A stretch of 64,000 bases of DNA from an uncultured Acidimicrobiales bacterium (GCA_963803875.1 CAWDOA010000016.1:619033-683032), one strand, 5' to 3'; shown: positions 10,352-52,552, counted from the first letter of the stretch. Notes: generated by a model not told the origin, from the letters alone. Numbers and translations are program-made.

Positions 10352-10526
10352 ACGCGTCGTTTGAGTCGGCGTTCTGTTTCTTTGGTACAAAGCAGTCGTC
10401 CTGGGGTGTTCAGCCAACTCGGAATTGTGCCGTAACAATGGTCCGACGAGGGCGCGACTCCGGGCCCGCCTGGAGCGTCCAATAGGCGTCCAGCAATCAA
10501 GGGGCTCGGCCCCGGAGAGGAAAAAC

Positions 10527-10700: not shown

Positions 10701-10725
10701 CGAGCACCCAACCAGAATCGAATCA

Positions 10726-10750
10726 GCGACCCCGGCAGGTCCGGGGTCGC
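10726..10750 (+). terminator. stem-loop terminator candidate
   Basis: Perfect 10-bp GC-rich stem GCGACCCCGG / CCGGGGTCGC with a 5-nt loop, 26 nt after the stop. There is no U tract, which is common in actinobacteria. Confidence 0.55.
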
Positions 10751-10805
10751 TACGCGCCGCGGCCCGCCTTGCGGACTTTGGGCCCTAGGGACAGAGCGCA
10801 TCGCA

Positions 10806-11237: not shown

Positions 11238-11325
11238 GCCTTTCTGCGCTGGGCGTTGCGTCCGCTCACCGCCGCCGGAAGCGGGGTCATCGTATTCGGC
11301 TACTGGTCTGGTGTCGCCGGGACGA

Positions 11326-11888: not shown

Positions 11889-12228
11889 TGTGGTCTTCAA
11901 GCTCGATCTCGATCGCGACTACCAGTGCGCGGGTGGTCGTTCGCAGCGACATCGCGGCGTTTTCCATTTCTATTCTCCAAGGGTAGAAACCGGGTCCGGG
12001 TGCCCGGTAATCGGTGAGGTTCCACTCTCGCCCGTGGGTGTTTGCCGTGTTTCGGGCCGGATGACGATTGAGGTGTCCCCTGGGCACTCTCGCTATGAGC
12101 CGACATGCGCTAGCATGACCTTCGTCACGGTCGACGCGGGTAACCTTCCCAGCCGGCGCCGGGTCACATACACAACAGAGAGGAAATGCTGTCTGGATCC
12201 ACTGTGGTTCCCGGAGCATTGATTCACC

Positions 12229-13678: not shown

Positions 13679-13769
13679 ACTAGCCCAGGGTCCCAACGCC
13701 GCAACCCTCGGTGAGGGGTTCCCCACCAATCTCATGGACGCATCGAAGCGGCAGAACTAGCGTCGGTTC

Positions 13770-14540: not shown

Positions 14541-14626
14541 AAGCCGCTGGTTTCGGTCACGCCAACGTCAGAGGTCACATAGGCCCGGCTCGTCATAGCA
14601 GGGCTCGCCGCAGTAGTTCATACTGT

Positions 14627-21056: not shown

Positions 21057-21064
21057 AGGTCGGA

Positions 21065-21583
21065 GTGAGCGAACCGGACCACACGCCGGCGTTCGACGGA
21101 AGTCAAGGTCGAATCTCCATCGACAACGCGCTACGGACCGCGCAACAGAACACCTTGCAGCTGAGCGCCATGGCCGATCAGAAAGCGAGCGTCGTGCTCG
21201 GTGCCGCGTTCGTGATGGCGACGATCGTGGTCGGGGACCTTGACGGAACCAACGACCTCGTGCAGTTGATGTTGCTGATCACGGCGATCGGATCGGGGGC
21301 AGCAGCCGGTCTGGCGCTGATGCCGGGCTCACAATCCAGAGCAGCGAAGGGTCATCCCAACCCGCTGTTCTTCAACGGTGTCGTGAAGATGACCGAAGCC
21401 GAGTATTTCAGCGAGATGCGGCGGGTCACCAAAGACGATGCGGCGTTGTATCAGGCGATCTGTACCGATCTGTACTTGTCCTCCATCGCTTTGGGGAAAC
21501 GGAAGTTCCCGCTGCTGAGATTCAGTTATCAGTTTTTGATCCTCGGCATGCTGGTGACCTTGGCGACGGCCGTAGTCACCTGA
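21065..21583 (+). CDS. 3-TM protein resembling the DUF5706 / Pycsar-effector domain (tentative)
   Basis: 172 aa. It has N-terminal AMADQKASVVLGAAFVMATIVVG (TM1), a second TM, then NPLFFNGVVKMTEAEYFSEMRRV...LSSIALGKRKFPLLRFSYQFLILGMLV (TM3). The family is assigned from a remembered pattern only. Confidence 0.5.
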   Translation: MSEPDHTPAFDGSQGRISIDNALRTAQQNTLQLSAMADQKASVVLGAAFVMATIVVGDLDGTNDLVQLMLLITAIGSGAAAGLALMPGSQSRAAKGHPNPLFFNGVVKMTEAEYFSEMRRVTKDDAALYQAICTDLYLSSIALGKRKFPLLRFSYQFLILGMLVTLATAVVT

Positions 21584-30003: not shown

Positions 30004-30284
30004 CCGCCGGCCGATTCGAAGACGAAGTCCGCCGGGTGCTCGGCGAGACCGAGCCGGGAGACGTTCTGACCTACGGGGAGGTGGCGTCCGAAGCCGGATT
30101 CCCCGGCGCAGCGCGGGCGGTGGGCAACCTCCTCCGGGTGGGAGAGGGGATGCCGTGGTGGCGGGTTGTGGCCGCATCGGGTCGCCTGAATCCCAGCGGG
30201 CCAGACGAACATGCCGAGCGTCTTCGGGCCGAGGGGCATCGCGTAGAGCCCAGCGCCGCTGGTCACCTGAGAATCTGTCAGTAA
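30000..30284 (+). CDS. MGMT-family DNA-binding protein lacking the active-site Cys (alkyltransferase-like, ATL)
   Basis: TYGEVASEAGFPGAARAVGNLL ... MPWWRVV stands in place of PCHRV. The GTG overlaps the upstream stop (GTGA). Confidence 0.7.
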   Translation: MTAGRFEDEVRRVLGETEPGDVLTYGEVASEAGFPGAARAVGNLLRVGEGMPWWRVVAASGRLNPSGPDEHAERLRAEGHRVEPSAAGHLRICQ

Positions 30285-31225
30285 CCGAAGCGCTGCCTGG
30301 TGCCAGCGGTCAGCGCGCTCACCAGCCGACGTTGTGCGGAGGGCATCTCGGTCTTCCAGCGGTCGTCGAGCCGTAGCCGCACGCTGGCGCTGCCGAAACG
30401 CATCGGGTTGCCGGCGGCGGAATGCATCTGAGTTGACAGCACACCGTGCGAGCCGTCGAACACGCCGGCGGGAAGGGTGGGCGGGTCGATGCCGGCGAAG
30501 GCTGCGACCTGTTCCAAACTTCCCACCGAATCGGCGAGGAAGTCCTCGTACCGCAACCGCAGGGTCGGGATTCCGAGCCGCTCGAGCAGCGCAAAGCCAG
30601 CGTTGTCGGTGACCCAACGACCGGCGGTGCGGGCCGGGGAGTAGCGAGGCATATGGGCCGGGGTGCCGCCGGTTGCTTCCGGACGGCTGATCTCTTTGGT
30701 CGATGAATACGCCACTCCCCGGGGATCGCGGATCACGTGGAGAACACGAACCTCGAGGCGCTCATCGAGGGAATACAGCACGGCCGAGCTCAAGTGTTTC
30801 GACGAGTCGAGCACGATGTCGGCACCGGTTCGTTCCTTGGCGACAACCCCGGCAGAGGCGATCACAGAGCCGATCAGTTGGAGGTACTCCCGATACGCCG
30901 CCGGGACGATTCCGGTTCGATGGGCTCGGATCATTTGAGGCAAGCGCCGGGAACGATCGATGTCCCACCGTTGTTCGATCACCTGCGCGGTGTCGACCGC
31001 TGACCAGTCGCCAAACGCCCTTCGCCCGACCTCTGACCAGTAGTCGCAGTGATGGAACGGCTCACCGCAGCCGCACAGTTCGTTGTTGCGGAGACCCCGC
31101 TCCCAGATGTGGACACTCTCGCCGATGGCAAAGGTCTGGGGGTACTCGTTCAGAAGGCGCTCGATCAGGGTGCTTCCCGACCGTCCCAGGCCTCCGATGA
31201 ACAACACTCGCTGCTTCACAGCCAT
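30278..31225 (-). CDS. sulfotransferase family protein
   Basis: PAPS 5'-phosphosulfate loop FIGGLGRSGSTLIERLL. 315 aa. Confidence 0.75.
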   Translation of the reverse strand: MAVKQRVLFIGGLGRSGSTLIERLLNEYPQTFAIGESVHIWERGLRNNELCGCGEPFHHCDYWSEVGRRAFGDWSAVDTAQVIEQRWDIDRSRRLPQMIRAHRTGIVPAAYREYLQLIGSVIASAGVVAKERTGADIVLDSSKHLSSAVLYSLDERLEVRVLHVIRDPRGVAYSSTKEISRPEATGGTPAHMPRYSPARTAGRWVTDNAGFALLERLGIPTLRLRYEDFLADSVGSLEQVAAFAGIDPPTLPAGVFDGSHGVLSTQMHSAAGNPMRFGSASVRLRLDDRWKTEMPSAQRRLVSALTAGTRQRFGY

Positions 31226-32148
31226 CCCATCGATCGGCCGAGCAGCCCTTCGGTGGCTTCGACACTCGGGGTGAGGGCCTCGACAAGGCGAGGGCGTTGG
31301 GCGGCCGGTTGCGATGAGTCAGCCCGCTTGTTCCATGCCTCGAACTCGTCGAGGGAGAACGGTTCGATCTCCAGGAAGTCAGTCACCTGGCGGTAGATCC
31401 TGGCCGGTTCCTCATACATGTCTTCGCTGCGCAGGATCAGGAGCTGGTGGGCTGGCCAGTGGTGGATCCATCGGGCCAGACCGCGCTCATAACGACCCTG
31501 ATCGACGTAGCTGTAGTGCTGATGGGCGAAGCTCACATAGCCGGGTTCTGTGATGATCCGCTCTTCCTCACCGGCGATTCGTTCGGCTTCGGCATCGAGT
31601 GCGGCGGAGAAGGAGAGCCACTCAACTCTGTTGCGAGTGCGCTCTCCCCAATGGCCAAAGGCCCGGTCGACCGGGTTGCGAAGCAGAGCAATCACCTTGG
31701 CTGTGGGCGCGTGGGCCCGGGCCCGTATTGGGGCGAGCGGGTGGTGGAGGTAGTACGGAGCCGCTTCACCAACGATCTGAGAGCTGGCCTTCAACGACGC
31801 CGCCAAGGGAAAGTGCGACGCGTACCAGTCGCTCCCGCGCTCATAGTTGACGTCGAAGTAGTAGGTGCCCTTTCGCGTCTCCCGCTCCGGGTACAGCGGG
31901 GACACTTCCGGATGTTCGAGTATCCATCGAGCCAGCGATGTGCTCCCGCCCCGCTTGGTGCCGATGATGAGGTAGTCGGGTTTGGCCCGCAGCGAGCTGG
32001 TGGCCGAACCAAACGTGCGGGCGCCGCCCAGCATTCGCCCCCGCAGTTGGTCAGTCAGTCCAACCCGCTCGCGTTCAGGACCTCCGTACGGGCTCAAACG
32101 GGGGAGCGGGTGAGGCGGTTGGGGGCCGGCGAAGCCAGGCCTGGTCAT
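31216..32148 (-). CDS. sulfotransferase domain protein
   Basis: IIGTKRGGSTSLARWI (PSB loop) and ALLRNPVDRAFGHW (3'-PB-like). Overlaps the downstream gene by 10 nt. Confidence 0.75.
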   Translation of the reverse strand: MTRPGFAGPQPPHPLPRLSPYGGPERERVGLTDQLRGRMLGGARTFGSATSSLRAKPDYLIIGTKRGGSTSLARWILEHPEVSPLYPERETRKGTYYFDVNYERGSDWYASHFPLAASLKASSQIVGEAAPYYLHHPLAPIRARAHAPTAKVIALLRNPVDRAFGHWGERTRNRVEWLSFSAALDAEAERIAGEEERIITEPGYVSFAHQHYSYVDQGRYERGLARWIHHWPAHQLLILRSEDMYEEPARIYRQVTDFLEIEPFSLDEFEAWNKRADSSQPAAQRPRLVEALTPSVEATEGLLGRSMGWL

Positions 32149-33125
32149 GCGTGGATCGGTCCGTCGTGCGCAGAGAGCGACGCCGGGGGTCGACCTCGAC
32201 GCACCGCCAGGAATTCTGCGGCCATCGCCACCGCAGTCTCGGCCGGTGAGCGGGAACCGAGGTCGAGGCCCAGGGGACCGTGAATTCTCGACCGGTCGGT
32301 ATAGCCGAGGGCCTCCAACTGTTCACCCCGTCGGCGCTGGGTGTTTCGTGAACCCATCGCTCCGATGTAGCCGACCACCCCGTCGAGTCCCGCAGCCAGA
32401 ACGGCAACGTCAACAGCGGGATCGTGGCTCAACACCAGTAGCGCGTCGGCCGGCGTTGCGGCAGTGCAGAACTCAGTCGCAGTTGCTACGTCTTCGACGA
32501 AAGCAATCTCCCACCCCATCAGTTCCCCCTGGGCTCGAAACGCTTCGGCCATCGGCCCACCGCCAACCACAATGGCTTTGGTGGTGGGAACCGCTGCGGA
32601 CAACAACACCGACCGTCCCTCGATCTCCACGATTTCGGTGTTCGACTGGCCCTGTCTCAGCAGTTGGCGGGCGTGTGTGATGGCGGCGTCAGTAGCCTCG
32701 GTATTCCACAGGTTGCCGGCCACGCCAACCGGGCCGACGGCGAGGTCGGTGCCCGACCCGTCAGCGGCGGCAGCGACAACGACAGGTTCTGCGCTGGCGA
32801 ACCAGGCGCCGATCTCCCCGGGAAGATCGGCGACAGGGCTGAGCATCAGGGTGGCCGTGCCTCCGCACAACAATCCTGCTGCCACGGCGTCCGCCTCGGC
32901 GATCGGGACCTCGATCACCTTCCGTCCGCTTCCAGCGTCGAGAATGTGCCGGTCGACGATGCCCCCGAGTACCGAACCCTCTATCGTCGCGGCCCCGCCG
33001 GCGCCGGGGATGACAACGGCACCATCGGTGCTGTCTCGGACTCCGATTCCCCTGATGTGGACCACACGAACCAGCGTTCCGGCCTCAGCTCGTAGTGAAC
33101 GAAGAGTTTCTCGTACCCGTTCCAT
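32145..33125 (-). CDS. XdhC/CoxI family accessory protein
   Basis: N-terminal XdhC_CoxI-like LVRVVHIRGIG...GGTATLMLSP and a C-terminal Rossmann VVGGGPMAEA ... YIGAMGSRNT ... IHGPLGLDLGSRSPAETAVA. ATG at 33125. The stop overlaps the next gene (ATGA). Confidence 0.8.
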   Translation of the reverse strand: MERVRETLRSLRAEAGTLVRVVHIRGIGVRDSTDGAVVIPGAGGAATIEGSVLGGIVDRHILDAGSGRKVIEVPIAEADAVAAGLLCGGTATLMLSPVADLPGEIGAWFASAEPVVVAAAADGSGTDLAVGPVGVAGNLWNTEATDAAITHARQLLRQGQSNTEIVEIEGRSVLLSAAVPTTKAIVVGGGPMAEAFRAQGELMGWEIAFVEDVATATEFCTAATPADALLVLSHDPAVDVAVLAAGLDGVVGYIGAMGSRNTQRRRGEQLEALGYTDRSRIHGPLGLDLGSRSPAETAVAMAAEFLAVRRGRPPASLSAHDGPIHA

Positions 33126-33743: not shown

Positions 33744-36555
33744 TCAGTCGGCAAATGCCTCCAGCGGCGGGCATGAACACTGGAGGTTTCTGTCGCCGTG
33801 CGCGTTGTCGATCCGGCCCACCGGCGGGAAGTACTTGTCGCGCTCCATTCCCGGCAGCGGAAACGCCGCCTGCGCTCGGCTATAGGGTCGGCTCCACTCG
33901 TCGCTGAGAACATCGGCAGCGGTGTGAGGGGAATGGCGCAGCACGCTCTCATCGATGTCGACATCGCCGGAGGCGATCGCGCCGATTTCGTTGGCGATAC
34001 CGATCATGGCATCGCAGAAGCGGTCGAGTTCGGCCAGGCTCTCGCTCTCGGTCGGCTCGATCATCAACGTCCCCGCAACCGGGAAGCTCATTGTCGGGGC
34101 GTGGAATCCGTAGTCCGCCAGTCGCTTGGCAATGTCGTCGACGTCGATGCCTGTGCTCTCGTGGAGCGGGCGGATGTCGATGATGCACTCATGAGCAACA
34201 AGACCTCCCGGCCCGGTGTAGAGGATCGGGTAGTGCTCACGGAGTCGTGACGCGATGTAGTTGGCGGCCAGAACTGCGCCTTCGGTAGCTCGGCGTAGTC
34301 CCTCGGGGCCCATCATTCGGATGTACATCCACGAGATCGGAAGGATCCCCGCTGATCCGTAGGCGGCTCCTGAGACTCGACGTTGGCGTTCGCCAAGGTC
34401 GGCCAATTCAACCTGGGGCAGGAACGGAATCAGGTGTTCTCCAACCCCGATGGGGCCAACGCCGGGGCCGCCGCCACCATGGGGGATGCAGAATGTCTTG
34501 TGAAGATTGAGGTGGCTCACGTCGGACCCGAATGATCCGGGCTGGGCCACCCCGACCAGCGCGTTCAGATTGGCGCCATCGGTGTAGACCTGGCCGCCGG
34601 CGTCGTGAACCATCTGGCATACCTCCGCCACGGTGTGTTCATAGACACCGTGGGTGCTCGGGTAGGTGATCATCAGGGCTGCAAGTTCGTTGCCGTGGGT
34701 CGTGATCTTGGCCCGCAGGTCATCGAGGTCGATGTCGCCGCGATCATTGCAGGCGACGACGACGACTTTCAAGCCAGCCATAACCGCAGATGCGGCGTTG
34801 GTGCCGTGGGCGCTCTGAGGGATGAGGCACACGGTTCGGTGGCCTTCGCCGCGAGCGTCCTGCCAACCCTTGATGGCGAGCAGCCCTGCGTATTCACCTT
34901 GACTTCCGGCGTTGGGCTGCAAGCTGATGGCGTCGTACCCGGTGATCGCCGCTAGATCGGCTTCGAGATCGCCAATCAGCTGCAGATACCCGGCGGTTTG
35001 CTCAGCGGGAGCGAACGGATGAATGCCGGCGAACTCGGGCCAGGTGATGGGCTCCATCTCGGCGGCTGCATTCAGCTTCATGGTGCACGACCCCAACGGG
35101 ATCATCGTGCGGTCGAGAGCCAGATCTCGGTCGGCAAGCCGTCGCAGCCAACGCAGCATCTCGTGTTCGCTCTGAAAACGGTGGAACCTGTCGTCGGTGA
35201 GGAACGAAGAGCTTCGCGACAGCGACGTCGGTATTCCCGAACCTTCTTCCGACAGGTAATCGACTCCAAATGCGTCGAGCAGGTTGCGCACGGTCTGGCC
35301 AGTGGTGGTCTCGTCGAAGCTCACCGAGATGTGGGTGTCGCTGAACCTCCGTGATGTTGATTCCTTTTGCGGCTGCGGCGGCGACCATCGTGTCGGCGTC
35401 ACCCGCAATGGTCACGGTGTCGAAGAACGTTTCGGAGCACTCATGACCGGCCGCAGCCATGGACGACCGAAACGTCGATGTCAGACCGTTGATGCGCTCG
35501 GCAATGGCAGTGAGTCCGTCGGGCCCGTGCCAGCACGCATAGGATGCCGCAACGTTGGCCAGCAGCGCTTGGGCAGTGCAAATGTTGGATGTGGCCTTGT
35601 CCCTGCGGATGTGTTGTTCCCTTGTCTGAAGGGCAAGGCGATAGGCGGGGTGGCCGTGGCTGTCGATACTGACACCGACCAGACGGCCCGGAAGGGACCG
35701 GGCGTGTTTCTCCTTGGTCGCCATGAAGCCGGCGTGAGGGCCACCGAAACCCATGGGTACCCCGAAGCGTTGAGCGCTGCCGACCACAACGTCGGCGCCC
35801 GCTTCGCCAGGGGGAGTGCCGAGCGTGCAGTAGAACAGGTCGGTGGTAACAGCTGCCGTCGCCTGGGCATCGTGAAGTGATCGAATGATCGGGCCGAGGT
35901 CGGAGATGGCCCCGGACGATCCGGGCTGAGCAAGCAATGCGCCGTACACCTCATCGGGAACGAGATCGGTGGCGGGGTCACCGATGGTGACGTCGATCCC
36001 GAGCGGTTCGGCTCGGGTGAGGCAGACTGCGATGGTCTGCGGATGACAGTCCTGGTCTACGAAGAACCCGTTCCGTTTGGTTCGGTCGAGGCGGCGGAGC
36101 ATGGTCATCGCTTCGGCCGATGCGGTCGATTCGTCCAGCAACGATGCGTTTGCTAATTCACAGCCGGTGAGGTCGGCGATCATGGTTTGGAACACCAAAA
36201 GCATTTCCAGTCGGCCCTGACTGATCTCGGGCTGATATGGCGTGTAGGCCGTGTACCACGCCGGGTTTTCGATCATGTTGCGACGAATGACCGCTGGTGT
36301 GATGGTGTCGTTCCAGCCTTGACCGATCAGTGAAGTGAAGACCTGATTCTGGTCGGCGTAGGCCCGAAGGGCGGCGATCGCCTCGGTCTCCGAGAGGGCC
36401 GAGGGTACCCCCAACGGCCCATCGATCTGGATGTCATCGGGCACTGCGTCTCCCAGCAGATCCGATGCTGACCCGTAGCCGAGACCGGCCAGCATCTTGG
36501 CCCGATCGTCGTCGGTGAGGCTTATGTGGCGATCGGCGAATGAGTGGTGGGACAT
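33744..36555 (-). pseudogene. gcvP: glycine dehydrogenase (decarboxylating), single-chain P-protein; one frame break as written
   Basis: ORF 35002..36603 carries the N-terminal half (AWYTAYTPYQPEISQGRLE, GFGGPHAGFMA, REQHIRRDKATSNICT). ORF 33744..35408 carries the C-terminal half ([25 protein letters not shown]). The junction GINI|[14 protein letters not shown] is near 35350. The ATG at 36555 abuts the gcvT stop. Confidence 0.9.
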
Positions 36556-36556
36556 G

Positions 36557-37666
36557 TCAAGCTCCTCGGTGGAAACGGTGGGGGGTGAAGGGCAGGGATG
36601 CAACGGTGCAGACGACGTCGTTCCCGCGCACGTCGGCGATCAGTTCGGTTCCGATGGCGGCCAGTTGCGGTGGGACATAACCCATCGCAACCGGAGCTTG
36701 GACGGTAGGACCGAAGCCGCCACTGGACACCACGCCGCAAGGCTGAGTCCCTCCGGCAACTCTCAATTCAGCGCCATCCCGGACCGGTCGTCGACCACGG
36801 GGCGCCAGCCCAACCCGGACACGGGAAGGCCCTTCGGCCCACTCCCGCAGAACTCGCTCAGCACCGGGAAAGTCTGCGGCATCGCGACGCCGTTTGGGGA
36901 TGGTCCATTTCAGGTCGGCCTCGACCGGGGATGTGGTTGTGTCGAGATCGTTGCCGTAGAGGCAGAGACCAGCTTCGAGGCGCAGGGTGTCGCGTGCTCC
37001 GAGGCCAGCCGGTCGAACCCGATCGTCGGCCAGCAGCAATCGGGCGAGTGCCTCGGCGTTGTTTGTATCGACCGCGATTTCGAAGCCGTCCTCGCCGGTG
37101 TAACCGGCCCGGAATGCTGCTGCCGGAATCCCGCCCAGTTCTGTGGCACGGGCGTCGAGAAACACCGTGTCGGCCAGTCCGGCATCGTGGGCGATTACTA
37201 CATCGGCTGCTGCCGGGCCCTGGAGGGCGATGAGGGCGATCCCCGGCTTTGGACGTACCTCGATGCCGGTGAGCCGTTCGGTGAGGTGAGGAATGTCCAC
37301 ATGGGCTCGCGCCGCGTTGACCACCAGCGTGAAGTGTTGGCCCCAGTTGATCGCCATGAAGTCGTCGATCACCCCGCCATCGTCGTTGGTGAGGAGGCCA
37401 TATCGCTGCCGACCCTCGCCGAGGTTCGCGAAACCGGCCGGTGAGACCGTTTCGAGTGCCGTTCCGGGGTCAGCGCCCCACAGTTCAACCACTGCCATAT
37501 GGGCCACGTCGAAAAGGGCTGCGCTGGTGCGGCACCAGTTGTGCTCGGCCACAACTCCCTCGTACTGGATGGGCATCTCCCACCCTGCGAACGGCACAAG
37601 CCGTGCGCCCAGTTCCTGGTGAAGTTGGTGCAGCGGGGTTGTTTTCAAAGAGTCTGGACTTGACAC
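36557..37666 (-). CDS. gcvT: glycine cleavage system aminomethyltransferase T-protein
   Basis: PLHQLHQELGARLVPFAGWEMPIQY, SAALFDVAHM, GYTGEDGFEI, ARDTLRLEAGL. The start is set at GTG 37666 (GAGG 9 nt upstream), because the longer ORF start at 37726 lies inside the riboswitch. Confidence 0.9.
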   Translation of the reverse strand: MSSPDSLKTTPLHQLHQELGARLVPFAGWEMPIQYEGVVAEHNWCRTSAALFDVAHMAVVELWGADPGTALETVSPAGFANLGEGRQRYGLLTNDDGGVIDDFMAINWGQHFTLVVNAARAHVDIPHLTERLTGIEVRPKPGIALIALQGPAAADVVIAHDAGLADTVFLDARATELGGIPAAAFRAGYTGEDGFEIAVDTNNAEALARLLLADDRVRPAGLGARDTLRLEAGLCLYGNDLDTTTSPVEADLKWTIPKRRRDAADFPGAERVLREWAEGPSRVRVGLAPRGRRPVRDGAELRVAGGTQPCGVVSSGGFGPTVQAPVAMGYVPPQLAAIGTELIADVRGNDVVCTVASLPFTPHRFHRGA

Positions 37667-42150: not shown

Positions 42151-45100
42151 ATGACTCATAACGAGGGAAAATGGGAAGGACGTCCTGTTGTCGCAGGGAT
42201 CCTGCGCGTTCTCATCACCCTCGCGCCCATCGCCATCTCTATCATCCTCGTCACGGTCGCAAGCAGAGTTGTTCCGCGACCCGATGGCTGGCTCAAAACG
42301 ATCAGCTGGTGGGTTGTCCTCTCCATCTTCGCCACCATCGTCTTGTTGGTGTTCGATCGACTCTTCCGGCGACTGATGCCGATCGTCGCCATGTTCAAGC
42401 TGTCGCTGATCTTCCCTGACCGAGCCCCAACGCGCTTCCGGGCGGCCCTTCGGAGCGGCACGGTCCGGCAGTTGCAGCGCAAGATGGAGTCGGGCGAGTT
42501 CAGCAGGGCGGCGCCGCAGGAAGCCGCCGAAGCCCTGATCGCACTCGCAAGCACGTTGAACGCGCATGACCGGCTGACGCGGGGCCACACCGAGCGGGTC
42601 CGGGCCTATTCGGTGATGATCGGACAGGAGATGGGCCTCGACGACCACGAACTTGAACTCCTCAACTGGTCCGGGCTGGTCCACGACATCGGCAAACTCA
42701 CGGTGCCAGCGGAGATTCTCAACAAGGACGGAAGGCCGACCGACCAGGAGTGGCAGATCCTTCGGCAACATCCTGCGAAAGCCGATGCCCTCGTCGAGCC
42801 GCTGCGGACCTGGCTGGGCGAATGGGCCGAGTCGGCCACTCAACATCACGAGTACTATCGACGGCAACGGCTATCCGCATGGGCTTGCCGGTCGGGAAAT
42901 ATCGCTCGCGGGGCGGATCGTTGCGGTCGCCGATGCGTACGACGTGATGACCTCGGCCCGCTCCTACAAGCAACCGATGCCAGCTTCGGAGGCTCGTCGA
43001 GAGCTAGCGGCCAACGCCGGCACCCAGTTCGATCCCCAGGTCGTTCGAGCCTTCCTCGGTGTCAACGTCGGCCGACTGCGATTGGTTGCGGGCCCTCTCG
43101 GATCGCTCGCGCAGCTGCCCGCCGGTTCGGCAACGATCGGTTCGGTGGCGACGACCGGGGCAAGCGTGGTCGCCACCATGGCGGTTGGAGCGTTCACCGG
43201 TCTCTACGGCCCGCAGGTCGAGGTGGCGGCTCCCACCGTCCCTGAAACGGTCGCCCTCGTGGCAGAAGCTCCCGATTACACGGTTTGGGGGGCCGAGGAC
43301 CAGACGCTCGAAGCCGATCTCAGCGAACTCGTCACCGACCTGGGGGTTCAGGTAAGTCTCCTCGACGAGCCCGAGAACGGCACTGCCGAAGTCTCGTCCT
43401 CCGGGCGAGTGTCGTTCTCGCCCGACCCGAACTTCAACGGCACTGTGATCCTGCCCTACTCGGCTTGTATCGAGGATGGAGCGTGCGATTTCGGGTCGCT
43501 CACGTTCGTCGTCGAAGCGGTGAATGACCGGCCGACCGCGGCCGACGACTCGGCGACCGTCATCGAGAACACACCATTGGCTATCGCGGTGTTGGACAAC
43601 GACGAGGATCTCGATGGTGATCCCCTCACGGTCAGCTCGGTGACAGCAGTGACGGGCGGTTCTGCGTTCAGCGACGGGTCGACCGTCACCTTCGTCCCCA
43701 CCCCGCGCTCCACCGGCCCCGCCAGCTTCACGTACTCGATCATCGATGGCAAGGGCGGCTCGGCTTCGGCTCAGGTTGCCCTGACGGTCGTCGACGACCC
43801 GGATCGTCCTTTGCTCGTGGCCGACTCGGTGACATCGCCCGAGGACCAGACTGTCGTGATCGACGTGCTCGGCAACGACAGTAGCGATGCGCCGCTCGAC
43901 CCGTCCGAACTGGCAGTCGTGCGCCCGCCGAGTTCGGGCACCGCCACGGTGGTGAGCGGTGCCGTCACCTACGTCCCGGCCGCGAACTGGTTCGGCGTGG
44001 ACACCTTCGACTACTTCGTCTGTGACGTCGAGGAGTTCTGTGACGTTGAGACAGCGACTGTCTCGGTCGGTTCGGTCAACGACCCGCCGACGTTCGTCGG
44101 GGGCGGACCGCCGGTCGTGCTCGAGGACTCCGGCGCACACGTTCTTGTGAACTGGGCGACCGCAATCGATCCGGGATCCGACGAGGTCGGGCAATCGGGA
44201 ACGTTCACCGTGGCGACGGACAACCCCGACCTGTTCGACGTGCAGCCCACGGTCTCGCCAACGGGGGACCTGTCGTTCACGCCTGCACCCGACGCCAATG
44301 GAACGTCGACGATCTCGGTCACGCTTCGCGATTCGGGCGGAGCCGCGGCGGGCGGTTCCGATACGAGCTCACCGTTCGAAACCCAGATCGTCGTGATCGC
44401 CGTGAACGACCTGCCATCTTTCAGCCCGGGACCGGCGTACACGATGACCGAGGACTTTGGCCCGACCGTGATCCCGGGCTGGGCAACAGGATTCAGTCCG
44501 GGGCCGGCCGATGAGACGGGTCAGGAACTGTCCTTCACCGTCGTCGCCGATGACCCGTCGCTCTTCGGTACTCAGCCCGCGATCTCGCCGGCGGGAGATC
44601 TGTCCTTCGCTCCGGCGGTCGACGCAAACGGTGCAGCGAACTTCACCATTCGGTTGGTCGACGACGGAGGAACGGAGTTCGGTGGCGTCGACACGAGCCC
44701 TGCTGCCACAGCAACGCTCACGATCGAACCGGTGAACGATCCGCCCAGCTTTGTCGCCGGGCCTGACGTCGTAGTGCTCGAGGATGCAGGTGGCCAAACG
44801 ATCGCCGGATGGGCGACCGCCATCTCGCCCGGTCCCCCCGATGAGATCGGTCAGACCGTTGCCTTCGCCGTGGTGGCGGACGATCCGTCGCTGTTTGCGG
44901 TGCAGCCGGCACTCTCGTCTTCGGGGGATCTGACCTTCACACCACAACCGGACACCGCCGGTTCGGCGATCATCACGATTACCACTTCCGATGACGGCGG
45001 AACCGCCCTCGGCGGCATCGACACCGGCCCACCGGTCACGGCGGCGGTCACGATCGACCCCGTCGACGACGCGCCCGAAGCATACGACGATGCAACCGCC

Positions 45101-48088
45101 ACGAGCGGGCCGGGGTTGACAAACATCGCGGTACTCGGCAACGACATCGACCTCGACGGAGACCTCGATCCCGCCTCCGTCTCGATCGTTGTCACTCCGG
45201 TCAAGGGCACTGCCGTACCGAATCCCGACGGCACGATCGGCTATACGCCGACCCCCGGGCAAACCGGACACCGACTCGTTCGTCTATCAGGTCTGTGACC
45301 TGGCGTCTGCATGCGACACCGCCACGGTGACCGTCGGGATCATGGGGCCGAATGCGGCCGACGACAGCGCCACCACCGACGAAGATGCACCACCGATCAC
45401 CATAGATGCGTTGGCCAACGACACGGACCCAACCCCTGATCTCGATCCGACGTCGGCCGTCGTCGTCACCGCACCGGCAAACGGGTTGGCGACGGCAAAC
45501 GGCGACGGGACCTTCGACTACGTATCGGACCCCCACTACTTCGGGATCGATTCGTTCGAGTACCGGGTGTGCGATCTCGCCGGTTCATGCGCCGAGGCCA
45601 CCGTCGACGATCGATGTCGCCACCGTCCCCGATGCACCGGGCGGTCAGGCCGATGCATTCGTGACCGATCGCGACGCCCCCATAGCGGTTGGCGCTCCGG
45701 GTGTGCTCGCCAACGACCACGACTACGACGATGATCCACTCACGGCAGTACTCGACACCGGGCCCGGTTCCGGCGCGGTCACGCTCGACCCGGATGGGTC
45801 GTTCACGTACACGCCGAACGCCGGCTTCACCGGTTCGGACAGCTTCACCTACACCGCCTTCGACGGAGCGATTGTCATCGACCCCGACGACCGTCGTCGA
45901 TCACCGTCGACTCGGGCGTCGCGGCCGAAGGGTTGGTTCCTCGGCGACAGTGGAGCCACCGCGGACGACTTCGACCTCGTGGCGACGCCTCCGACCCCCG
46001 GCGATCCGGATCCCGACGGAGATCTCGATCCCGGATTGACGATCCTGAGGAGCGATGGGTCTCAGACCGATCCCGATCCGCTGAACTACCACCACTGGAT
46101 CCTGAATCCTGGCGCATCGGCTCTCGATCTCAACGGTCCCGTGACGCTCAAGCTCTGGAGCACGCTGGCCGGGTTCGAACTCGGTGCTGACGTCGACTGT
46201 CGGCGTGGCTGTACGACTGCGATGCTGTCACCCTCGGTTCGTGCTCACCCGCCTTGTTGAGCCTACGAGAACGCCCACACCAACAACTGGAACGATGGGG
46301 TTGCGGACTTCGCGTATCGCGAGATCACTCTCGGAAGCCTGACCCACACGGTTGCACCGGGTCGCGTGCTCAAACTTGCGGATGATGTTCGGGCATGAGG
46401 ACATGTGGGTCGCCATGGACTCCGCCCACCCCTCCGAGCTGGAACTCACTCTCGCCAACGCGAGCCCCAATGCCGTCGACGATTCGTATCCGATGGGCTC
46501 GCCGGTTCTGGAAGGTGGCCCGCTCGTCAACCTCGATGTGTTGTCCAACGACATCGACGACGACCTCGATCCGACGAGCCTCTCCATCGAGCCGGCACCA
46601 ACGCCGGCAGGCGCGCTGGTTGTCAAAGGTGACAACACCCTCGACTACACGCCTTCGCCGGACTTCGTCGGAATCGACACGTTCGACTACCGGGTCTGCG
46701 ATCTCGGTGGTCTCTGCAGCGTCGCGACCGTCACGGTCACCGTTACGCCGGTCAACGATGCTCCTTCCTTCGTGAAGGGTTCGGACCAGACTGTCCCCGC
46801 AGATTCGGGCGCCCAGTCCCGGGTTGGATGGGCGACGTCGCTCAGCCGAGGCCCTGCCGACGAAGCAGGCCAGACGCTGACCTTCAACATCACTGCCAAC
46901 ACCAACCCCGGCTTGTTCTCCGCCCAACCGCAGGTCTCGTCGACCGGAACGTTGCTGTTCACACCGGCAGCCGGGCAGGACGGCTCGGCCACTATCACCA
47001 TCGAACTGCAGGACGATGGGGGAGTGGTCGACGGCGGCATCGATACTTCTCCTCCACAGACATTCGAGATCATCGTTGACGATCACGGGATCGTCGTGTC
47101 GGAGTTCCGACCGGCCGGACCGGGCGGCGGCAACGACGAGTTCGTCGAGCTCTTCAACGCTGGAGTTGTGCCAGAGGATCTGACCGGATGGCGACTGCAC
47201 ATCACGAGCGCACTCGATTTCGATTTCTACACCTTCCCGGCAGTGACGCTCCTCCCGGGTCAGCACTATCTCGTGACCCATCCGGGATCACCGCAAGCAG
47301 GCTTTGCCGACGACACCTGGAGCGGGCTGATCTACGGCTCAGGGTTCGGTGATGTGCAGGTTCTCACCTCGACCGGAACCCAGGTCGACGCGTTCCACTA
47401 CGGCTCGGGCCCGACGGTCGGCGAGGGAGCCGCCCTTCCGTCGTGGAACAACCCCGCCGGCCTCGACGGCAGCTGGGAGCGACTGTTCGGCGGAGCGTAC
47501 GGGAACTGTGTCGACAGCGACGACAACCGGACCGACTTCGTGCGCAACTACGGCAAGAGCACACTCCAGAACATGTCGTCACCGTTCACGCCCTGCGGCA
47601 GTCCAACCACCGCCGACAGCGTGATCATCAGTGAGGTTCGGCCGAATGGACCGGCAGGCATCGGCGATGAGTTCATCGAAGTCGTCAACGCGACGAGCTC
47701 CATGGTCGACATCGGCGGGTGGGCGATCGAGATTCCCCAAACCCTCCACACCTTCGCACCGGGCACGTTGTTGGCACCGGGAGAGACCTATGTGATCGGG
47801 TCACCCTCGGGGTACAGCGGCTTCGCCGACGCCGATTACAACGGGGCCGTTGCGTTCCCGTATCTCGGGAACGACCACTACGTAGCGCTGATGAACGGCA
47901 CCACGGTGATCGACGCCATCGCCTGGGGTTCGGGAACTGCCGAGGGCACACCGATGCCTTCCTACGACGGTGTTGCCTTCAATGACGTCAGCTATGAGCG
48001 CGGCCACGGCGGGTGCTCGGACTTCGACGACAACCTCGGTGACTTCGTGCTGTCCTTCGCCAGCACCCCTGGAACCGCCGGCTGCTGA
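42151..48088 (+). pseudogene. giant membrane protein: TM + HD-GYP domain + TM + cadherin-like/VCBS-like repeat array + two lamin-tail-like (LTD) domains; ~9 frame breaks as written
   Basis: N-terminal TMs. HD-GYP: HTERV, LVHDIGK, QHHEY|IDGNGYP (step ~42855), DAYDVMTS. A hydrophobic segment VATTGASVVATMAVGAF follows. Next come repeated ~100-aa modules with VNDxP, DxDGD and FxYxVCD motifs through ORFs 42653..45298, 45189..45734, 45406..46260 and 46352..48088. The C-terminus has two SE(F/V)RP..G..DEF(V/I)E(L/V)(F/V)N modules. Confidence 0.75.
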
Positions 48089-48114: not shown

Positions 48115-48879
48115 TCAGAGTGAACGACCGATGGGTGTGCGGCTGAGCACAACGAGTGACCAGGGCGGGTCGTTGCGTTGCTCAACGACCCGAAATCCGG
48201 CGTAGGAGGAGACAGCTCGATCGATCTGTTCCTGACCCTGGAGTCCGGTTGCGATGATCGTTGCCGTCGGGGATGCCAGTTTGGTGATTGCGGCCCCTTC
48301 GGCTTCGTGGGTTCCAACGAGGGCATTGATGACGACCACGTCGAACCCGTTCGATCCTGCCAGCCAGCCCGGCGTTGCCAGCTGCGTCGGGGAGGCGGTC
48401 ACGAAGCTGGTGTGGGTCTCCACGTTGTTGCGCTTGGCGTTTCGAACCGCAATTGCCACCGCTGCGGGCTCGATGTCGCATCCGGTCGCACGAAATCCCA
48501 GGCGGGCGGCAGCGATGCTGAGCACGCCGGTGCCGGTGCCAACATCGAGCAGTGGTCGATGGTGTCCCGGGCCGATCGAATGGAGCGCATCCAGAGCCAG
48601 TGCGGTGGTTGCGTGGGACCCATGACCAAAGGCTGTTCCCACCTCCAACTCGATGGTTCCCGATGTCAGAGCGACCCTGGACAGCTCATCCTGACCCCAC
48701 GATCCGGCCGCTTCAACCGACCCACCGTGGGCGTCGGCGAACACCCGTGCCGACGCATGATCAGCGAAGCCGACGATCATGCATTCAGCCGTTTCAGCGA
48801 TTCCGGTGGCATCGGCCAGGCTTGCTGCGATTTCAATGGCGTCCGGATCAGCACCCTCGATCCGGACAACCCAACTCAT
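48115..48879 (-). CDS. SAM-dependent methyltransferase, ribosomal protein L11 methyltransferase (PrmA)-like
   Basis: FGHGSHATT, LLDVGTGTGVLSIAAARLG, GCDIEPAAV. ATG at 48879. The upstream part of ORF 48115..49413 is antisense-type junk that overlaps the neighbouring gene. Confidence 0.7.
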   Translation of the reverse strand: MSWVVRIEGADPDAIEIAASLADATGIAETAECMIVGFADHASARVFADAHGGSVEAAGSWGQDELSRVALTSGTIELEVGTAFGHGSHATTALALDALHSIGPGHHRPLLDVGTGTGVLSIAAARLGFRATGCDIEPAAVAIAVRNAKRNNVETHTSFVTASPTQLATPGWLAGSNGFDVVVINALVGTHEAEGAAITKLASPTATIIATGLQGQEQIDRAVSSYAGFRVVEQRNDPPWSLVVLSRTPIGRSL

Positions 48880-48887
48880 CGTGGGCC

Positions 48888-50528
48888 TTAGCGCTGCGTT
48901 GTGATTCCAGCACGGACGAGCTGTACGAATGTTTCGCCCGGGGTCAACAGAATTGGTTCGGGCCCGGCCCGCAGCGTGAACGGTTGGCTGACGTCGAAAC
49001 GTTGCCAGGTCCCCACGATGTGTTTGCCGTCGGTGTACACGTGCGCCAGCCCGATGCCGGTGCTCACCGCTTCGGGGGTGTCGGCGTCGGCGGGGGACTG
49101 ACGGTGTTCCATCTCGAGCACCACAACATTGTCGGGAGCGATCACGGTGCCGTCGTCGAGCTTGTGGGTTTGACCGGCCTGAGTACGTTGCCAACCGAGC
49201 AGCGCCTGATTCCACTGGTATTCGACCCTGGTGCGTCCGTAGTCGATCCTCACGCCATCGGTCGAATCTCCCAGGGCGCTGGGGATTCCCGCCTCCCGAT
49301 ACTGGAATATCGCCTGGGGAGCGATTCCCTCCGGTGCGGAAGCCATGATCTGGCTGCTGTTGACATACAGGTTGTGCGGAGCCGGTCGGCTGGTGTCGCG
49401 AGAGTAGGCCCACGGTGTTGATGCACGATCTCGGTTCACCAGGGCCACTCCGTCGAATTCGTTGAGAATTTGGAGCACTGTTGGGTTCCCCCCGGAGGCG
49501 GCCAGCACCGGCAGGTTGAACGCCCCGAGGATCCCGAAGTCGGTGGTTCGGGCCGATCGAACCGGCCCGATGGTGGTTGGGAATTCGCTGTGGAACATGG
49601 CGAGGAATCGGCTGATCCCGAACTCGACCTCTTCTTCGAAGACGATGTCGGCGTCGTGAAGGGCCCGTTGCGGGACTGCGCCCTGGTTGTTGTCGATCTT
49701 CACCACCAGTGCTCGACCGGGGTTGATCGTCTCGGATCGTTCGCCGGTGAGCGGGTGTTTCACCGGGTAGAGCCGTGCCATCCGATTGCGGTATTCAGGC
49801 TGGCCCAAAAATCCTGCGATGACACCGGTGTAGGCGCCTCCATCCCGGATGACTCCGGTCCAGTAGTTGAGCCCGTTGGGTTCGGGCGCTCGACCCAACA
49901 TGCCCGCGTACAACATGGTGGCTTTCACGATCGGGTCCATGTCGCGAATGTTCTCCACGCTCTCGCTGAACCCGAGCATCACGGCGCCGCGGCTGGTGCC
50001 GGCTGCCATCCGGTCCAGCCAATACGCTCGTCCGGCCGCGTCCGATGCCCGGCCGAGGACGTTTTGGTACACGAGCTCGATGAACTCGGTGTCGCTGAGT
50101 GAGCCGTAGGTGTTCTGGAACTCGGCGGACTTGGCGAACTCGTTGGAAACTGCCAGGGTCGAGAATCCGACTTCGAGTTGGCTGGCCCAGAACTTCAACC
50201 CAACGATGTCGGGGGAGCGGCGGAAGTAGGCGTAGTACAGCCGCACGACGGGGGCGATGCGGCCCTCGAACTCCGGTGAGGTGGCCATGGCGTTGATGAC
50301 CTCTGATCCTGAGGAGCCGGATCGGAGCCTCCCGATCCAGAAGTCGAGGCCGGCGGCATCGGGCTCACGGCCCAAGAAATCTCGGTACTGTTGGGTGATG
50401 AACCATCCTTCGGTGGAGAACGGGCTGACATTGTCGCTTTCCGCCGATGCCGGACCGGCAGACATGATCGAGCCGACCAAGGCCATCGCCATGAGGAGGG
50501 GGAGAAGGATTCGCCGTTTCAATCGCAT
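48888..50528 (-). CDS. secreted protein: three DUF4214-like repeats plus a DUF3048-like C-terminal domain
   Basis: Signal peptide MRLKRRILLPLLMAMALVGSIMSAGPASA. There are three repeats of the type FI..QYRDFLGREPDAAGLDFW. The C-terminal half carries ALVVKIDN...GISRFLAMFHS. Confidence 0.7.
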   Translation of the reverse strand: MRLKRRILLPLLMAMALVGSIMSAGPASAESDNVSPFSTEGWFITQQYRDFLGREPDAAGLDFWIGRLRSGSSGSEVINAMATSPEFEGRIAPVVRLYYAYFRRSPDIVGLKFWASQLEVGFSTLAVSNEFAKSAEFQNTYGSLSDTEFIELVYQNVLGRASDAAGRAYWLDRMAAGTSRGAVMLGFSESVENIRDMDPIVKATMLYAGMLGRAPEPNGLNYWTGVIRDGGAYTGVIAGFLGQPEYRNRMARLYPVKHPLTGERSETINPGRALVVKIDNNQGAVPQRALHDADIVFEEEVEFGISRFLAMFHSEFPTTIGPVRSARTTDFGILGAFNLPVLAASGGNPTVLQILNEFDGVALVNRDRASTPWAYSRDTSRPAPHNLYVNSSQIMASAPEGIAPQAIFQYREAGIPSALGDSTDGVRIDYGRTRVEYQWNQALLGWQRTQAGQTHKLDDGTVIAPDNVVVLEMEHRQSPADADTPEAVSTGIGLAHVYTDGKHIVGTWQRFDVSQPFTLRAGPEPILLTPGETFVQLVRAGITTQR

Positions 50529-50540
50529 TCGGGTTCGCTC

Positions 50541-52109
50541 TCAGTAGGCCGCCGGTTCAAGCGCAGAGGGTAGCGAAACCTTCACCGATTGTCCGAGCGC
50601 GGCTGAGAGGAGGCTGACACGTTCATTGGCAGCATGGACCTCGATGGAGAGATCTTGTTCGGGGTCGCTGGGGACCGGCTCGATGCTGACGCCGTCGCGG
50701 GTGAGGACGCGGACCGAGGCGACCGTGGATCGATGGCGACGATCCAGTCCGATGGCGATCCGCAAGATGCCGGCCAGCACTCTGACTCGGTCGCGATCCT
50801 TGGCGCTGAGGCCCATGAACTCGGCATGGCCTTTGCTGGGGTGGGACTTGCGGTGATACCGGGCGATCTGTGCGATCAGCTCGATTTCGTTGTCGCTGAA
50901 GCCGGTGAGCTGCTCGGAGTTCCTGATGACGTAGTAGCTGTGTTTGTGATGTCCGCTATGGCTGATGAAGAGTCCGACGTTGTGGAGCAGCCCGGCCATT
51001 TCGAGCAGTTCGCGTCCGTGGGGGCCGAGGCCGTGGAGGTCGTCGGTGCGATCGAACAGTTGTAGTGCCAGGTTGGTGCAGTGTTCGGCGTGCTCGATGT
51101 CGGGGTCGAGAGCTCGGGCCAGACGAATCACATTGGTCCGGCGAAGGTCGTCGAGGTGCTCGGCGGCGGCACCGGGCATGCGGTCGAGCAGAACCCCCTC
51201 CCGCAGGGCAAACGAGCTGAACGTGAAGCCGTCGAGAGCGGACAGTTCAACGACCTGCTCGGCCAGGATCGCACCGCCGATGATGATGTCGGACCGCTTC
51301 TCGTCGAGCCCTGGAATTCGGGCCCGTTTGTTCGGCTTGGTTTCGACGATCAGGTCCACGAGTTCGCTCAGTTGGGTCTTCGTCACCTGGGTGCCGTTGA
51401 GACTGGCGGGGATTCCCCCCGTGGTTGCACACGCCATGGTTGCCAGGGTTCCCGCCGTTCCCGACGAGCCGATGAGCACCTGGGGGCGGTGACCGACGAA
51501 TTCGATCTCCACGCCAGCGAGCGCCTGTTGTACGTAGCGACGGCAGTCCTCGACCGCCGTTGCATTCGGAACTGCACCACCCGGGAAGAACCGTTCGGTG
51601 AGCCTGATAGCGCCGAGTCGGAACGATCGAGCGGCAAGAAGGTCCGAACCCTGGCCCACCACGATTTCGGTGCTCCCACCGCCGATGTCGAAACCCATGA
51701 TCCGCTGATCGAAGACGGGTAGCGCCTTGAGCAGACCGAGATGGATGAGCCTGGCTTCCTCGAAGCCGCTGATCACCTGAACATCGACGCCGGCTTCGTC
51801 TCGGGCTCGGTCGAGAAACGCAGACTTGTTCTTGGCCTCTCTGACGGCGCTGGTGGCAACCGCGGTGACGTCGGCACCGAGGCTCTCGGCCACCTCGCGC
51901 ATTCTGGTGAGGGCCGCAATGCCACGCTCGATCGCATCGGGTGCGAGCGTCTTCATATCGCCCGAACCAGAGCCGAGGCGGACCACTTCCTTCTGGGTAG
52001 TGACGACTTCGAAACCCGACTCGGGCGCTATGCGAGCGACGACGAGGTGGAACGAGTTGGTACCGATGTCGATGGCGGCAATGAGGTCGTTGGCGGGGAG
52101 GTCGTTCAC
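50541..52109 (-). CDS. Ppx/GppA family phosphatase with C-terminal HD domain (exopolyphosphatase-like)
   Basis: AAIDIGTNSFHLVV, GFDIGGGSTE, then LLHNVGLFISHSGHHKHSYY. Confidence 0.85.
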   Translation of the reverse strand: MNDLPANDLIAAIDIGTNSFHLVVARIAPESGFEVVTTQKEVVRLGSGSGDMKTLAPDAIERGIAALTRMREVAESLGADVTAVATSAVREAKNKSAFLDRARDEAGVDVQVISGFEEARLIHLGLLKALPVFDQRIMGFDIGGGSTEIVVGQGSDLLAARSFRLGAIRLTERFFPGGAVPNATAVEDCRRYVQQALAGVEIEFVGHRPQVLIGSSGTAGTLATMACATTGGIPASLNGTQVTKTQLSELVDLIVETKPNKRARIPGLDEKRSDIIIGGAILAEQVVELSALDGFTFSSFALREGVLLDRMPGAAAEHLDDLRRTNVIRLARALDPDIEHAEHCTNLALQLFDRTDDLHGLGPHGRELLEMAGLLHNVGLFISHSGHHKHSYYVIRNSEQLTGFSDNEIELIAQIARYHRKSHPSKGHAEFMGLSAKDRDRVRVLAGILRIAIGLDRRHRSTVASVRVLTRDGVSIEPVPSDPEQDLSIEVHAANERVSLLSAALGQSVKVSLPSALEPAAY

Positions 52110-52552
52110 GAGCGATCCAGTGTGAGTGTGAGGGTGGTGCCGCCCCAGCCGCTGCGCTGATCGCGACCTTCGATGATGACCTGCTCGACGCTCTCGGGAA
52201 TCTCGATTCCTGATTGTGATCGGGTGAAGGGCTGTTCGTTGGCGTGATCGTGGCTGAGGAACCGCTCACCGTACACGGTGCCGTCGCTGGCTCGAACCCG
52301 CCACGAGTCCGCATATCGCTCCCGGCTGTCGTAGGGCGAGGACAGCGTCACTGAGAAGGTCCAAACTCCGGGTTCATCCCGGGTGGCGACCGCGGCGACG
52401 ACATCGGGAAACAGCGGTTCACCCGGCGGTGCGGGTTCGAGGGTGGTAGGAGCGTTGTCCGAAGGTTCAGACGAGCTGGGTTGAATGGCTGGTTCCTCCG
52501 CTGCCGAGGTGCAGGATGTGAGCACCAGAACCGCAGCGATGAGGAACCTCAT
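52106..52552 (-). CDS. small lipoprotein, function unknown
   Basis: MRFLIAAVLVLTSC lipobox. The ATG overlaps the upstream stop, and its own stop overlaps the ppx-like start. Confidence 0.6.
   Translation of the reverse strand: MRFLIAAVLVLTSCTSAAEEPAIQPSSSEPSDNAPTTLEPAPPGEPLFPDVVAAVATRDEPGVWTFSVTLSSPYDSRERYADSWRVRASDGTVYGERFLSHDHANEQPFTRSQSGIEIPESVEQVIIEGRDQRSGWGGTTLTLTLDRS

Follow-up and report, generated by a model that had tools for sequence, protein, structure and literature searches.

What a cyclic di-GMP (c-di-GMP) phosphodiesterase of the HD-GYP type does at the head of a giant, presumably surface-exposed repeat protein is the question raised by a gene of an uncultured Acidimicrobiales bacterium. 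The gene lies, with all its features described below, on the plus strand of the 64,000-nucleotide stretch that was analysed (GCA_963803875.1, CAWDOA010000016.1:619033-683032; hereafter the window, from whose first letter positions are counted). It occupies 42151-48088, with an ATG at 42151 and a stop codon at 48086-48088, and in the raw record it consists of five long open reading frame (ORF) pieces spread over three frames. An original prediction, made from the sequence alone, held that reading through these frames gives one protein of about 1950 amino acids (aa), and this is borne out: once eight surplus bases are taken out and one lacking base is supplied, the corrected ORF has 1976 codons and no internal stop, and the conceptual 1976-aa protein is colinear with two intact orthologues. 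Its domain order is two transmembrane (TM) segments, an HD-GYP domain, a third hydrophobic segment, 11 Big_9/cadherin-like modules with a jelly-roll domain inserted, and two lamin-tail domains (LTDs). The stretch 42151-48088 is thus a single gene, broken in this record by nine 1-nt indels.

The two orthologues were returned, as intact full-length copies, by a scan of GTDB genomes. One (L004, 10001-15940) encodes 1979 aa in one ORF in a SPAdes/Illumina metagenome-assembled genome (MAG), 'Acidimicrobiales bacterium Ww552', and the other (L005) encodes ~1974 aa from its own ATG, likewise in one ORF, on an 845-kb contig of MAG MFD03551.bin.2.2. The corrected window protein shares 83.2% aa identity with the former across 1976 aa with no gaps, and 80.7% with the latter. 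In Pfam searches both ORFs carry a full-profile HD_5 match (122.1 bits over profile positions 5-170 of 170 in L004), seven scored Big_9 stretches and two LTDs (PF00932, 99 and 106 bits), and neither is interrupted by a stop and a new start where the HD-GYP part meets the repeats, so that the fusion first proposed for the window holds in both. Three shorter metagenomic contigs are each uninterrupted at those of the window's break sites that they cover: L001 carries the N-terminal 729 aa in synteny with SurE and APH, L002 the counterpart of window 45.3-47.6 kb, and L003 the C-terminus including the stop codon, which confirms the orthologue end. The protein encoded on L001 (P0001, an 85%-identical orthologue) appears to stop 7 nt before the contig end (L001:5070-5092); its last ~15 nt diverge from the window, and this end is probably a contig-end artefact rather than that of a true 729-aa protein. 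Synteny of L005 with the window extends from 32.4 to 54.0 kb. The match of L004 is restricted to the gene itself (9926-15937), with flanks that show no synteny, and in that lineage either the gene has moved or its neighbourhood has been rearranged.

The indels were called from a three-way DNA alignment of the window, L004 and L005, in which the window differs from both orthologues by exactly nine 1-nt events: insertions at 42857, 45264, 45606, 45871, 45899, 45923, 46262 and 46375, and a deletion at 46196. Eight of the nine fall inside 45264-46375 (1.1 kb), so that the earlier estimate of about nine frame breaks, eight of them in 45.2-46.4 kb, proves exact in count and placement. Beyond these, lengths differ only by a 3-nt indel in L005 and by 9 nt at the L004 C-terminus. 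At the first junction (42857) the DNA reads cat cac gag tac T atc gac ggc aac ggc tat ccg, that is, HHEY, an extra base and IDGNGYP. A plot of third-position G+C content by phase was also tried for frameshift detection, and its noise was too high for use.

How the breaks arose bears on whether this copy can be trusted. The original prediction had cautioned that the locus might be decayed, mis-assembled in the repeats or more than one gene, and the five long ORF pieces in differing frames would indeed fit two or more genes, as they would programmed frameshifting or phase variation. However, L004 and L005 each carry one ORF, which excludes separate genes. Repeat collapse or mis-assembly is excluded as well, since the window is fully colinear with both orthologues, differs from them in length by 1-nt events only, and holds no tandem repeats and no near-identical direct repeats within the gene (direct repeats are at most 77% alike). 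None of the nine indel contexts is a homopolymer, simple repeat or repeat tract, which excludes phase variation and programmed frameshifting, and recoding at nine sites would be implausible. We regard this whole group of explanations as very improbable, and of the earlier caveat decay alone is kept, as a minority reading. The indels are probably a local consensus error of long-read metagenome assembly, caused for example by strain-mixed reads over a variable surface-protein gene. Substitutions unique to the window lineage number 108/60/226 at codon positions 1/2/3, compared with 106/59/196 in the L004 lineage; they show the codon-position bias of purifying selection, and in the indel-dense bins substitutions are not in excess and the third-position bias is kept. 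The corrected 1976 codons contain no nonsense codon, and this absence, together with the codon-position pattern, rules out a long-standing pseudogene. In the ~16 kb of flanks syntenic with L005, nearly all other gaps of a length not divisible by three are intergenic or paired within a few bases. The sole other frameshifted gene found in the window is gcvP, encoding the glycine dehydrogenase P protein (~33744-36603, minus strand), which a +1 insertion at ~35351 splits into two ORFs where L005 is intact; conversely, L005 has a frameshift of its own near the N-terminus of an APH/phosphotransferase gene (L005:9700-9960, minus strand) where the window and L001 are intact. These two breaks suggest that sporadic indels are typical of such long-contig MAGs. 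An artefact is thus favoured because the codon bias is kept, nonsense codons are absent, the +1 insertions cluster outside repeats, and gcvP carries the same type of lesion.

However, several observations weigh against this preference. The other 58 kb of the window are not riddled with frameshifts, gcvP being the only gene broken there, and each of five suspicious adjacent same-strand ORF pairs in the window proves to be two separate, intact genes. Nine breaks in one gene are therefore not explained by a uniform error rate, and the idea of a uniformly error-prone assembly, which gcvP supports, receives partial support only. The indels could be real, in which case this copy would be a pseudogene, since GYP and the last metal-binding Asp would be lost at the first break. 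That the decay is genuine and recent, the protein being lost in this strain and kept in relatives, is a possibility to which we give distinctly less weight. It would account for the concentration of the breaks in one gene, with the flanking SurE, APH, LLM oxidoreductase, PrmA-like, DUF3048 and Ppx genes intact, and large surface proteins are frequently lost in single strains. Yet the codon-position bias of the window lineage equals that of an intact orthologue, and the lack of nonsense substitutions and the gcvP lesion speak against recent decay too. Moreover, bacterial gene decay favours deletions, yet insertions make up eight of the nine events, and eight of the nine lie within 19% of the gene (a binomial estimate gives ~1e-5, for an interval picked post hoc). 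Whichever origin applies, this copy is frameshifted and unsuited as a reference, for which L004 and L005 should be used instead.

The enzymatic part is the HD-GYP domain (aa 134-297; 42550-43042), which the insertion at 42857 cuts between HHEY and (F/I)DGNGYP. Its two raw pieces score 54.7 bits (HD_5 profile 5-109, frame 1) and 56.8 bits (107-170, frame 2) against a cut-off of 27.2, and it matches the structures of V-cGAP3 (5Z7C, 6e-35), PmGH (4MCW, 4e-30) and PA4781 (4R8Z, 1.5e-26) in the PDB. The motifs first noticed here (HDIGK, HHEY(I/F)DGNGYP and DAYDVMTS) are all present after correction at 42857. GHTERV, HDIGK, QHP, HHE and DAYD align with the metal ligands of 4MCW, 5Z7C and 4R8Z, and the window protein keeps every one of H, HD, H, HH, D, GYP, the Lys of K(P/D)G and RSYK. 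Within the family, H146, H178, D179, H207 (at least 90%), H232, H233 and D261 are (nearly) invariant in 110 relatives; HHE..DG.GYP is kept in 116 of 120 homologues and RxY[KR] in 113 of 120, the window protein having RSYK and NKDG. Since both the PDB and the family alignments show all HD-GYP catalytic residues conserved, the catalytic-residue check speaks for the original assignment. The catalytic site is complete, and an active c-di-GMP phosphodiesterase is predicted.

The position equivalent to E185 of PmGH is Leu here, is L, M or I in 74 of the 83 scorable family sequences and is D or E in none, so that the Glu or Asp of the trinuclear subclass is absent and the enzyme would belong to the binuclear subclass. 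HD-GYP domains without an E185-equivalent acidic residue form this binuclear subclass and often halt at pGpG, and RxY[K/R] with Lys favours c-di-GMP over cGAMP (doi 10.1101/2021.11.05.467447). Given the binuclear subclass and the RxYK that is kept, c-di-GMP is the expected substrate, with pGpG as the likely main product.

How this enzyme would be placed relative to the membrane can be read from the segments around it. TM1 (aa 20-38) and TM2 (aa 50-68) form an N-terminal helical hairpin (42208-42354) according to Kyte-Doolittle (KD) hydropathy, with 19-residue means of 2.49 and 2.33, and to an AlphaFold2 (AF2) model of the orthologue P0001, which has helices at 12-40 and 47-73 at a pLDDT of 89-96; the loop between TM1 and TM2 has only 11 residues. 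A helical juxtamembrane region delimited from the family alignment (aa 69-133; 42355-42549) leads from TM2 to the HD-GYP domain. It matched no Pfam family, is strongly basic after TM2 and is highly conserved in the family, with P77, L86, F88, P89, D90, A92, P93, R95, A99 and L108 near-invariant. After the HD-GYP domain follows the predicted, Ala/Gly/Val-rich TM3 (aa ~328-350; 43133-43201), assigned by hydropathy, with a KD mean of 1.44 in the window protein and a family median of 1.68. Just ahead of it stands a GRLRLVxGP segment that is conserved across the family, and the sequence downstream is acidic. All 16 cysteines of the protein lie after TM3, as eight close pairs. Of the two or three N-terminal TM segments first proposed, hydropathy supports two and no third; the further hydrophobic segment proposed after HD-GYP is present and, with a KD mean of at least 1.3, conserved in 98% of 125 relatives. 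We infer an N-in topology, with a cytoplasmic HD-GYP domain and a ~1620-aa extracytoplasmic array, because all Cys pairs lie after TM3, because of the charge distribution, and because the hydrophobic segment after HD-GYP is conserved.

The array had been put at ~1500 aa; it is indeed large, and its predicted extracytoplasmic part is larger than that. Pfam matches to Big_9, Cadherin_4 and Cadherin_5 occur in every raw ORF piece, Big_9 reaching 192 bits over five stretches in one of them, and the NCBIfam tandem-95 repeat model NF012211 scores 184.5 bits against a cut-off of 90. The array opens with the Big_9/cadherin-like modules D1-D3 (aa 354-641; 43211-44074; Big_9 E 2.4e-8, 2.1e-20 and 5.8e-16), which carry paired Cys at 439/445 and 624/630. 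Then come D4-D6 (aa 642-970; 44075-45061; E 3.6e-6, 0.0043 and 0.0024), three ~110-aa Big_9-like variants of which D4 alone passes the gathering score and whose DNA copies, 330 nt apart, are 66-77% alike. They are followed by the Big_9 modules D7-D9 (aa 971-1250; 45062-45905; D7 E 6.7e-17), which take in the insertions at 45264, 45606, 45871 and 45899. Beyond the jelly-roll domain D10 lie D11, a Big_9 module (aa 1434-1531), and D12, another 110-aa variant (aa 1532-1639; E 3.3e-5), together at 46457-47074. The protein ends with LTD1 (aa 1640-1816) and LTD2 (aa 1817-1976), followed by the stop (47075-48085), and PF00932 matches in two stretches with 99.9 bits against a cut-off of 34.3 (LTD1 alone 3.4e-13), in agreement with the two terminal lamin-tail domains expected at the outset. 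The earlier label 'cadherin-like/VCBS-like' stands in its first half, given the Big_9 matches; the VCBS assignment was dropped, as no VCBS family of Pfam matched in whole pieces or per module. The domain content suggests an adhesin role. Four ~110-aa modules in all (44075-45061 and 46751-47074) have weak Big_9 scores, which in three cases lie under or close to the gathering score, and share the pattern VNDxPxF...GWA...GPxDExGQ...NPxLF...DDGG...GGxDTS; they look like a distinct Ig-like repeat subtype.

D10 is a 183-aa all-beta jelly-roll domain (aa 1251-1433; 45906-46456) that takes in the indels at 45923, 46196, 46262 and 46375. The original prediction had singled out an unassigned beta-rich region at 46190-46440; no Pfam family matches D10, in keeping with this, and its extent is larger than proposed. 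A word-index protein search gave two matches only, and an exhaustive HMMER search was needed, which retrieved 341 representative proteins at E<=1e-3, P0242-P0390 included. Among the best 150 of these matches, 31 are proteins of 669-2051 aa with an N-terminal HD-GYP domain, and the six HD-GYP/D10 proteins that were checked have HD_5 and 4-12 Big_9 modules, one of them ending in DUF11. D10 often stands C-terminally in HD-GYP-Big_9 proteins; it also ends other repeat proteins and is found in proteins of only ~230 aa. Its AF2 model, built from a 38-sequence alignment, is all-beta with a pLDDT of 95.3, and its best PDB folds are the C-terminal jelly-rolls of CocE/NonD and X-Pro dipeptidyl peptidase hydrolases (TMq 0.62-0.69, E ~5e-8, 10-13% identity), a resemblance of fold rather than demonstrated homology. 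D10 has a conserved PDxDGDGxPG loop and a Cys pair. We read it as a putative binding module, perhaps for a glycan. This recurrent and presumably extracellular jelly-roll domain of ~180 aa is newly defined here and lacks a Pfam model.

The closest homologues of the N-terminal core fall into more than 2000 clusters at 90% identity and, where named, are Acidimicrobiales, Ilumatobacteraceae, Actinomycetota or Gaiellaceae MAG proteins. HD_5 is accompanied by Big_9 in 62 of the 119 top core homologues, pentapeptide repeats replace Big_9 in a few close ones (P0068, P0082 and P0108), and others stop after TM3. Because homologues vary in this way, the conserved unit, as far as sequence comparison can define it, is 2TM-HD-GYP-TM3 with a variable ectodomain. 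The core-homologue database listed no protein longer than ~1006 aa, full-length relatives having come from genome contigs and the representative library. The window protein and its orthologues are among the longest, and it is in them that terminal LTDs were seen here. One 646-aa family member, P0083, encoded on a 4.7-Mb contig (L007:1-13941), adjoins a glycosyltransferase, a UDP-glucose dehydrogenase, a two-component system and an EAL-GAF protein, a setting that hints that some relatives connect the family to exopolysaccharide and c-di-GMP loci.

In the census of Galperin and Chou the HD-GYP domain is typically C-terminal and fused to N-terminal sensor or receiver domains, and neither cadherin, Ig-like or Big_ domains nor Acidimicrobiia are mentioned (doi 10.1101/2021.11.05.467447). 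Full-text literature searches that paired HD-GYP with Big_9 or with lamin tail domain had no hits, and pairing it with Acidimicrobiia gave one unrelated paper only. An HD-GYP domain with an inverted, giant C-terminal ectodomain is widespread in metagenomes and apparently undescribed. The earlier statement that no such fusion was known is therefore right in that we found no published one; the architecture is, however, not unique, being common in metagenomic Acidimicrobiia.

Comparison with known systems makes clear what is unusual in this arrangement. The characterised enzymes PmGH, PA4781 and V-cGAP3 have the same catalytic domain, in which no metal ligand is missing and GYP, K(P)G and RxYK are present, and the latter two likewise lack the E185 ligand for a third metal. 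They are, however, soluble proteins with N-terminal REC/GAF-type domains, whereas here the HD-GYP domain is near the N-terminus, has predicted TM segments on both sides and is followed by ~1620 residues. The one-component HD-GYPs with dCache, PBPb or CHASE2 domains (such as TM1170 and TM1682 of T. maritima) are membrane proteins that join an extracytoplasmic part to a cytoplasmic HD-GYP domain, as is predicted here, but theirs is a small N-terminal ligand-binding domain. The window protein has no extracytoplasmic ligand-binding domain N-terminal to HD-GYP and carries instead a giant Ig-like/LTD array C-terminal to it. Shorter HD-GYP-Big_9 proteins of Acidimicrobiia (P0004 with 609 aa, P0112 with 801 aa and P0185 with 944 aa), auto-named 'HD-GYP domain-containing protein', 'Ig-like domain-containing protein' or 'tandem-95 repeat protein', share the core at 42-60% identity and continue into Big_9. 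Their modules number one to a few, compared with 14 in the window protein, and D10 and LTDs are absent from most of them, while the longer D10 relatives P0243 (2051 aa) and P0244 (1800 aa) end in DUF11 or Big_9 and not in LTDs. Tandem-95/Big_9 surface proteins and bacterial LTD proteins such as the ExeM nuclease (PMC6085458) resemble the array in repeat chemistry and in having an LTD on an extracytoplasmic (here predicted to be so) protein, yet they have no signalling enzyme as membrane anchor, and the role of bacterial LTDs has been described as unknown.

The arrangement invites a mechanism by which the outside of the cell might inform the enzyme. The HD-GYP domain would be cytoplasmic and held to the membrane on both sides, and the ~1620-aa array would be exported by TM3 in the role of a signal-anchor. 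With Ca2+-type DxDxDG loops and the eight close Cys pairs lending it stiffness, the array would span the wall of the monoderm cell and hold its jelly-roll and LTD modules at the far end. If a ligand (surface, glycan or matrix) were bound, or the stalk came under tension, the signal could pass via TM3 and the GRLRLVxGP segment, altering HD-GYP activity so that local c-di-GMP is lowered or raised. It is this coupling of contact or ligand sensing to c-di-GMP hydrolysis that we infer from the domain arrangement. Taking the single gene, the artefactual indels and this outside-in sensing as one joint claim, we lean slightly towards it. That such proteins form an undescribed class of contact-, tension- or glycan-sensing c-di-GMP phosphodiesterases, in which a wall-spanning stalk gates the HD-GYP domain and the order of sensor and output is inverted relative to catalogued architectures, is a possibility that we put forward tentatively.

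Several points weigh against outside-in sensing. None of the analyses here shows the ectodomain regulating the enzyme, TM3 is only moderately hydrophobic in the window protein (KD 1.44) and the corresponding AF2 helix (340-352) has a pLDDT of ~40, the neighbouring genes are housekeeping genes that give no functional clue, and some core homologues end soon after TM3, at ~380-420 aa, with almost no ectodomain, so that the core may work alone. Perhaps, then, the array serves as a stalk, structural or adhesive, while the HD-GYP domain is constitutive or otherwise regulated, the fusion merely co-localising the two with no signal passing through TM3. The core does occur with ectodomains of nearly 0 to ~1700 aa and of unrelated types (pentapeptide repeats, DUF11, LTD), and AF2 shows no confident contact of TM3 with the rest of the protein. 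However, GRLRLVxGP and the juxtamembrane region that follows TM2 are strongly conserved, which is easier to reconcile with a role in transmission than with that of a passive linker, and fusions that persist over such divergence would usually mean functional coupling; we hold a pure anchor to be doubtful and place it a little below the sensor class. A signal might also travel from the inside out. In the Lap system (LapD/LapG/LapA), as is proposed here, c-di-GMP is tied to a very large surface repeat adhesin, and its control of that giant adhesin is established. By analogy, the HD-GYP domain could be mainly a c-di-GMP receptor whose occupancy alters the display or conformation of the adhesin, and certain HD-GYP proteins do act via binding or protein interactions. 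Yet the Lap system comprises three proteins in a diderm, with a degenerate receptor and a protease, and works inside-out, whereas the protein here is a single polypeptide from a monoderm lineage, and its hydrolase is intact. The degenerate, non-catalytic domain and the separate adhesin of LapD-type systems are not seen here, the residues being intact and the orthologues having a single ORF. Because the catalytic and metal-binding residues are all intact and family-invariant, while known receptor-type domains are usually degenerate, control of this kind is disfavoured and seems improbable.

Should the array prove to gate the enzyme, the consequences would reach beyond this locus. c-di-GMP governs the switch between attached and free-living life, and the step at which touch is detected is poorly understood. 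Known systems divide the adhesin and the c-di-GMP enzyme or receptor between different proteins; a widespread family whose intact HD-GYP hydrolase doubles as the membrane anchor of a giant surface array would open the coupling between contact and c-di-GMP to direct tests. It would also extend c-di-GMP biology into the Acidimicrobiia, an abundant and barely studied lineage of soil and water.

Promoter and terminator scans gave nothing beyond chance level. Just downstream, a 432-aa ORF on the minus strand (48115-49413) is over-extended at its N-terminus, the real gene being that for a ~258-aa PrmA-like methyltransferase (48115-48891); beyond it lie a secreted-type protein with three DUF4214 and a DUF3048 (48888-50528) and a Ppx/GppA phosphatase (50544-52265). 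Elsewhere in the window, a bacteriorhodopsin-like ORF (4293-5186, plus strand; PF01036, 118 bits) is followed by a SnoaL-like protein at 5165-5662, and two sulfotransferase-family genes stand side by side at 30281-32322 (minus strand). Directly 3' of an M20 peptidase gene, a 204-aa ORF (20969-21580, plus strand) matches the Pycsar effector transmembrane domain PycTM (PF18967, 51 bits).

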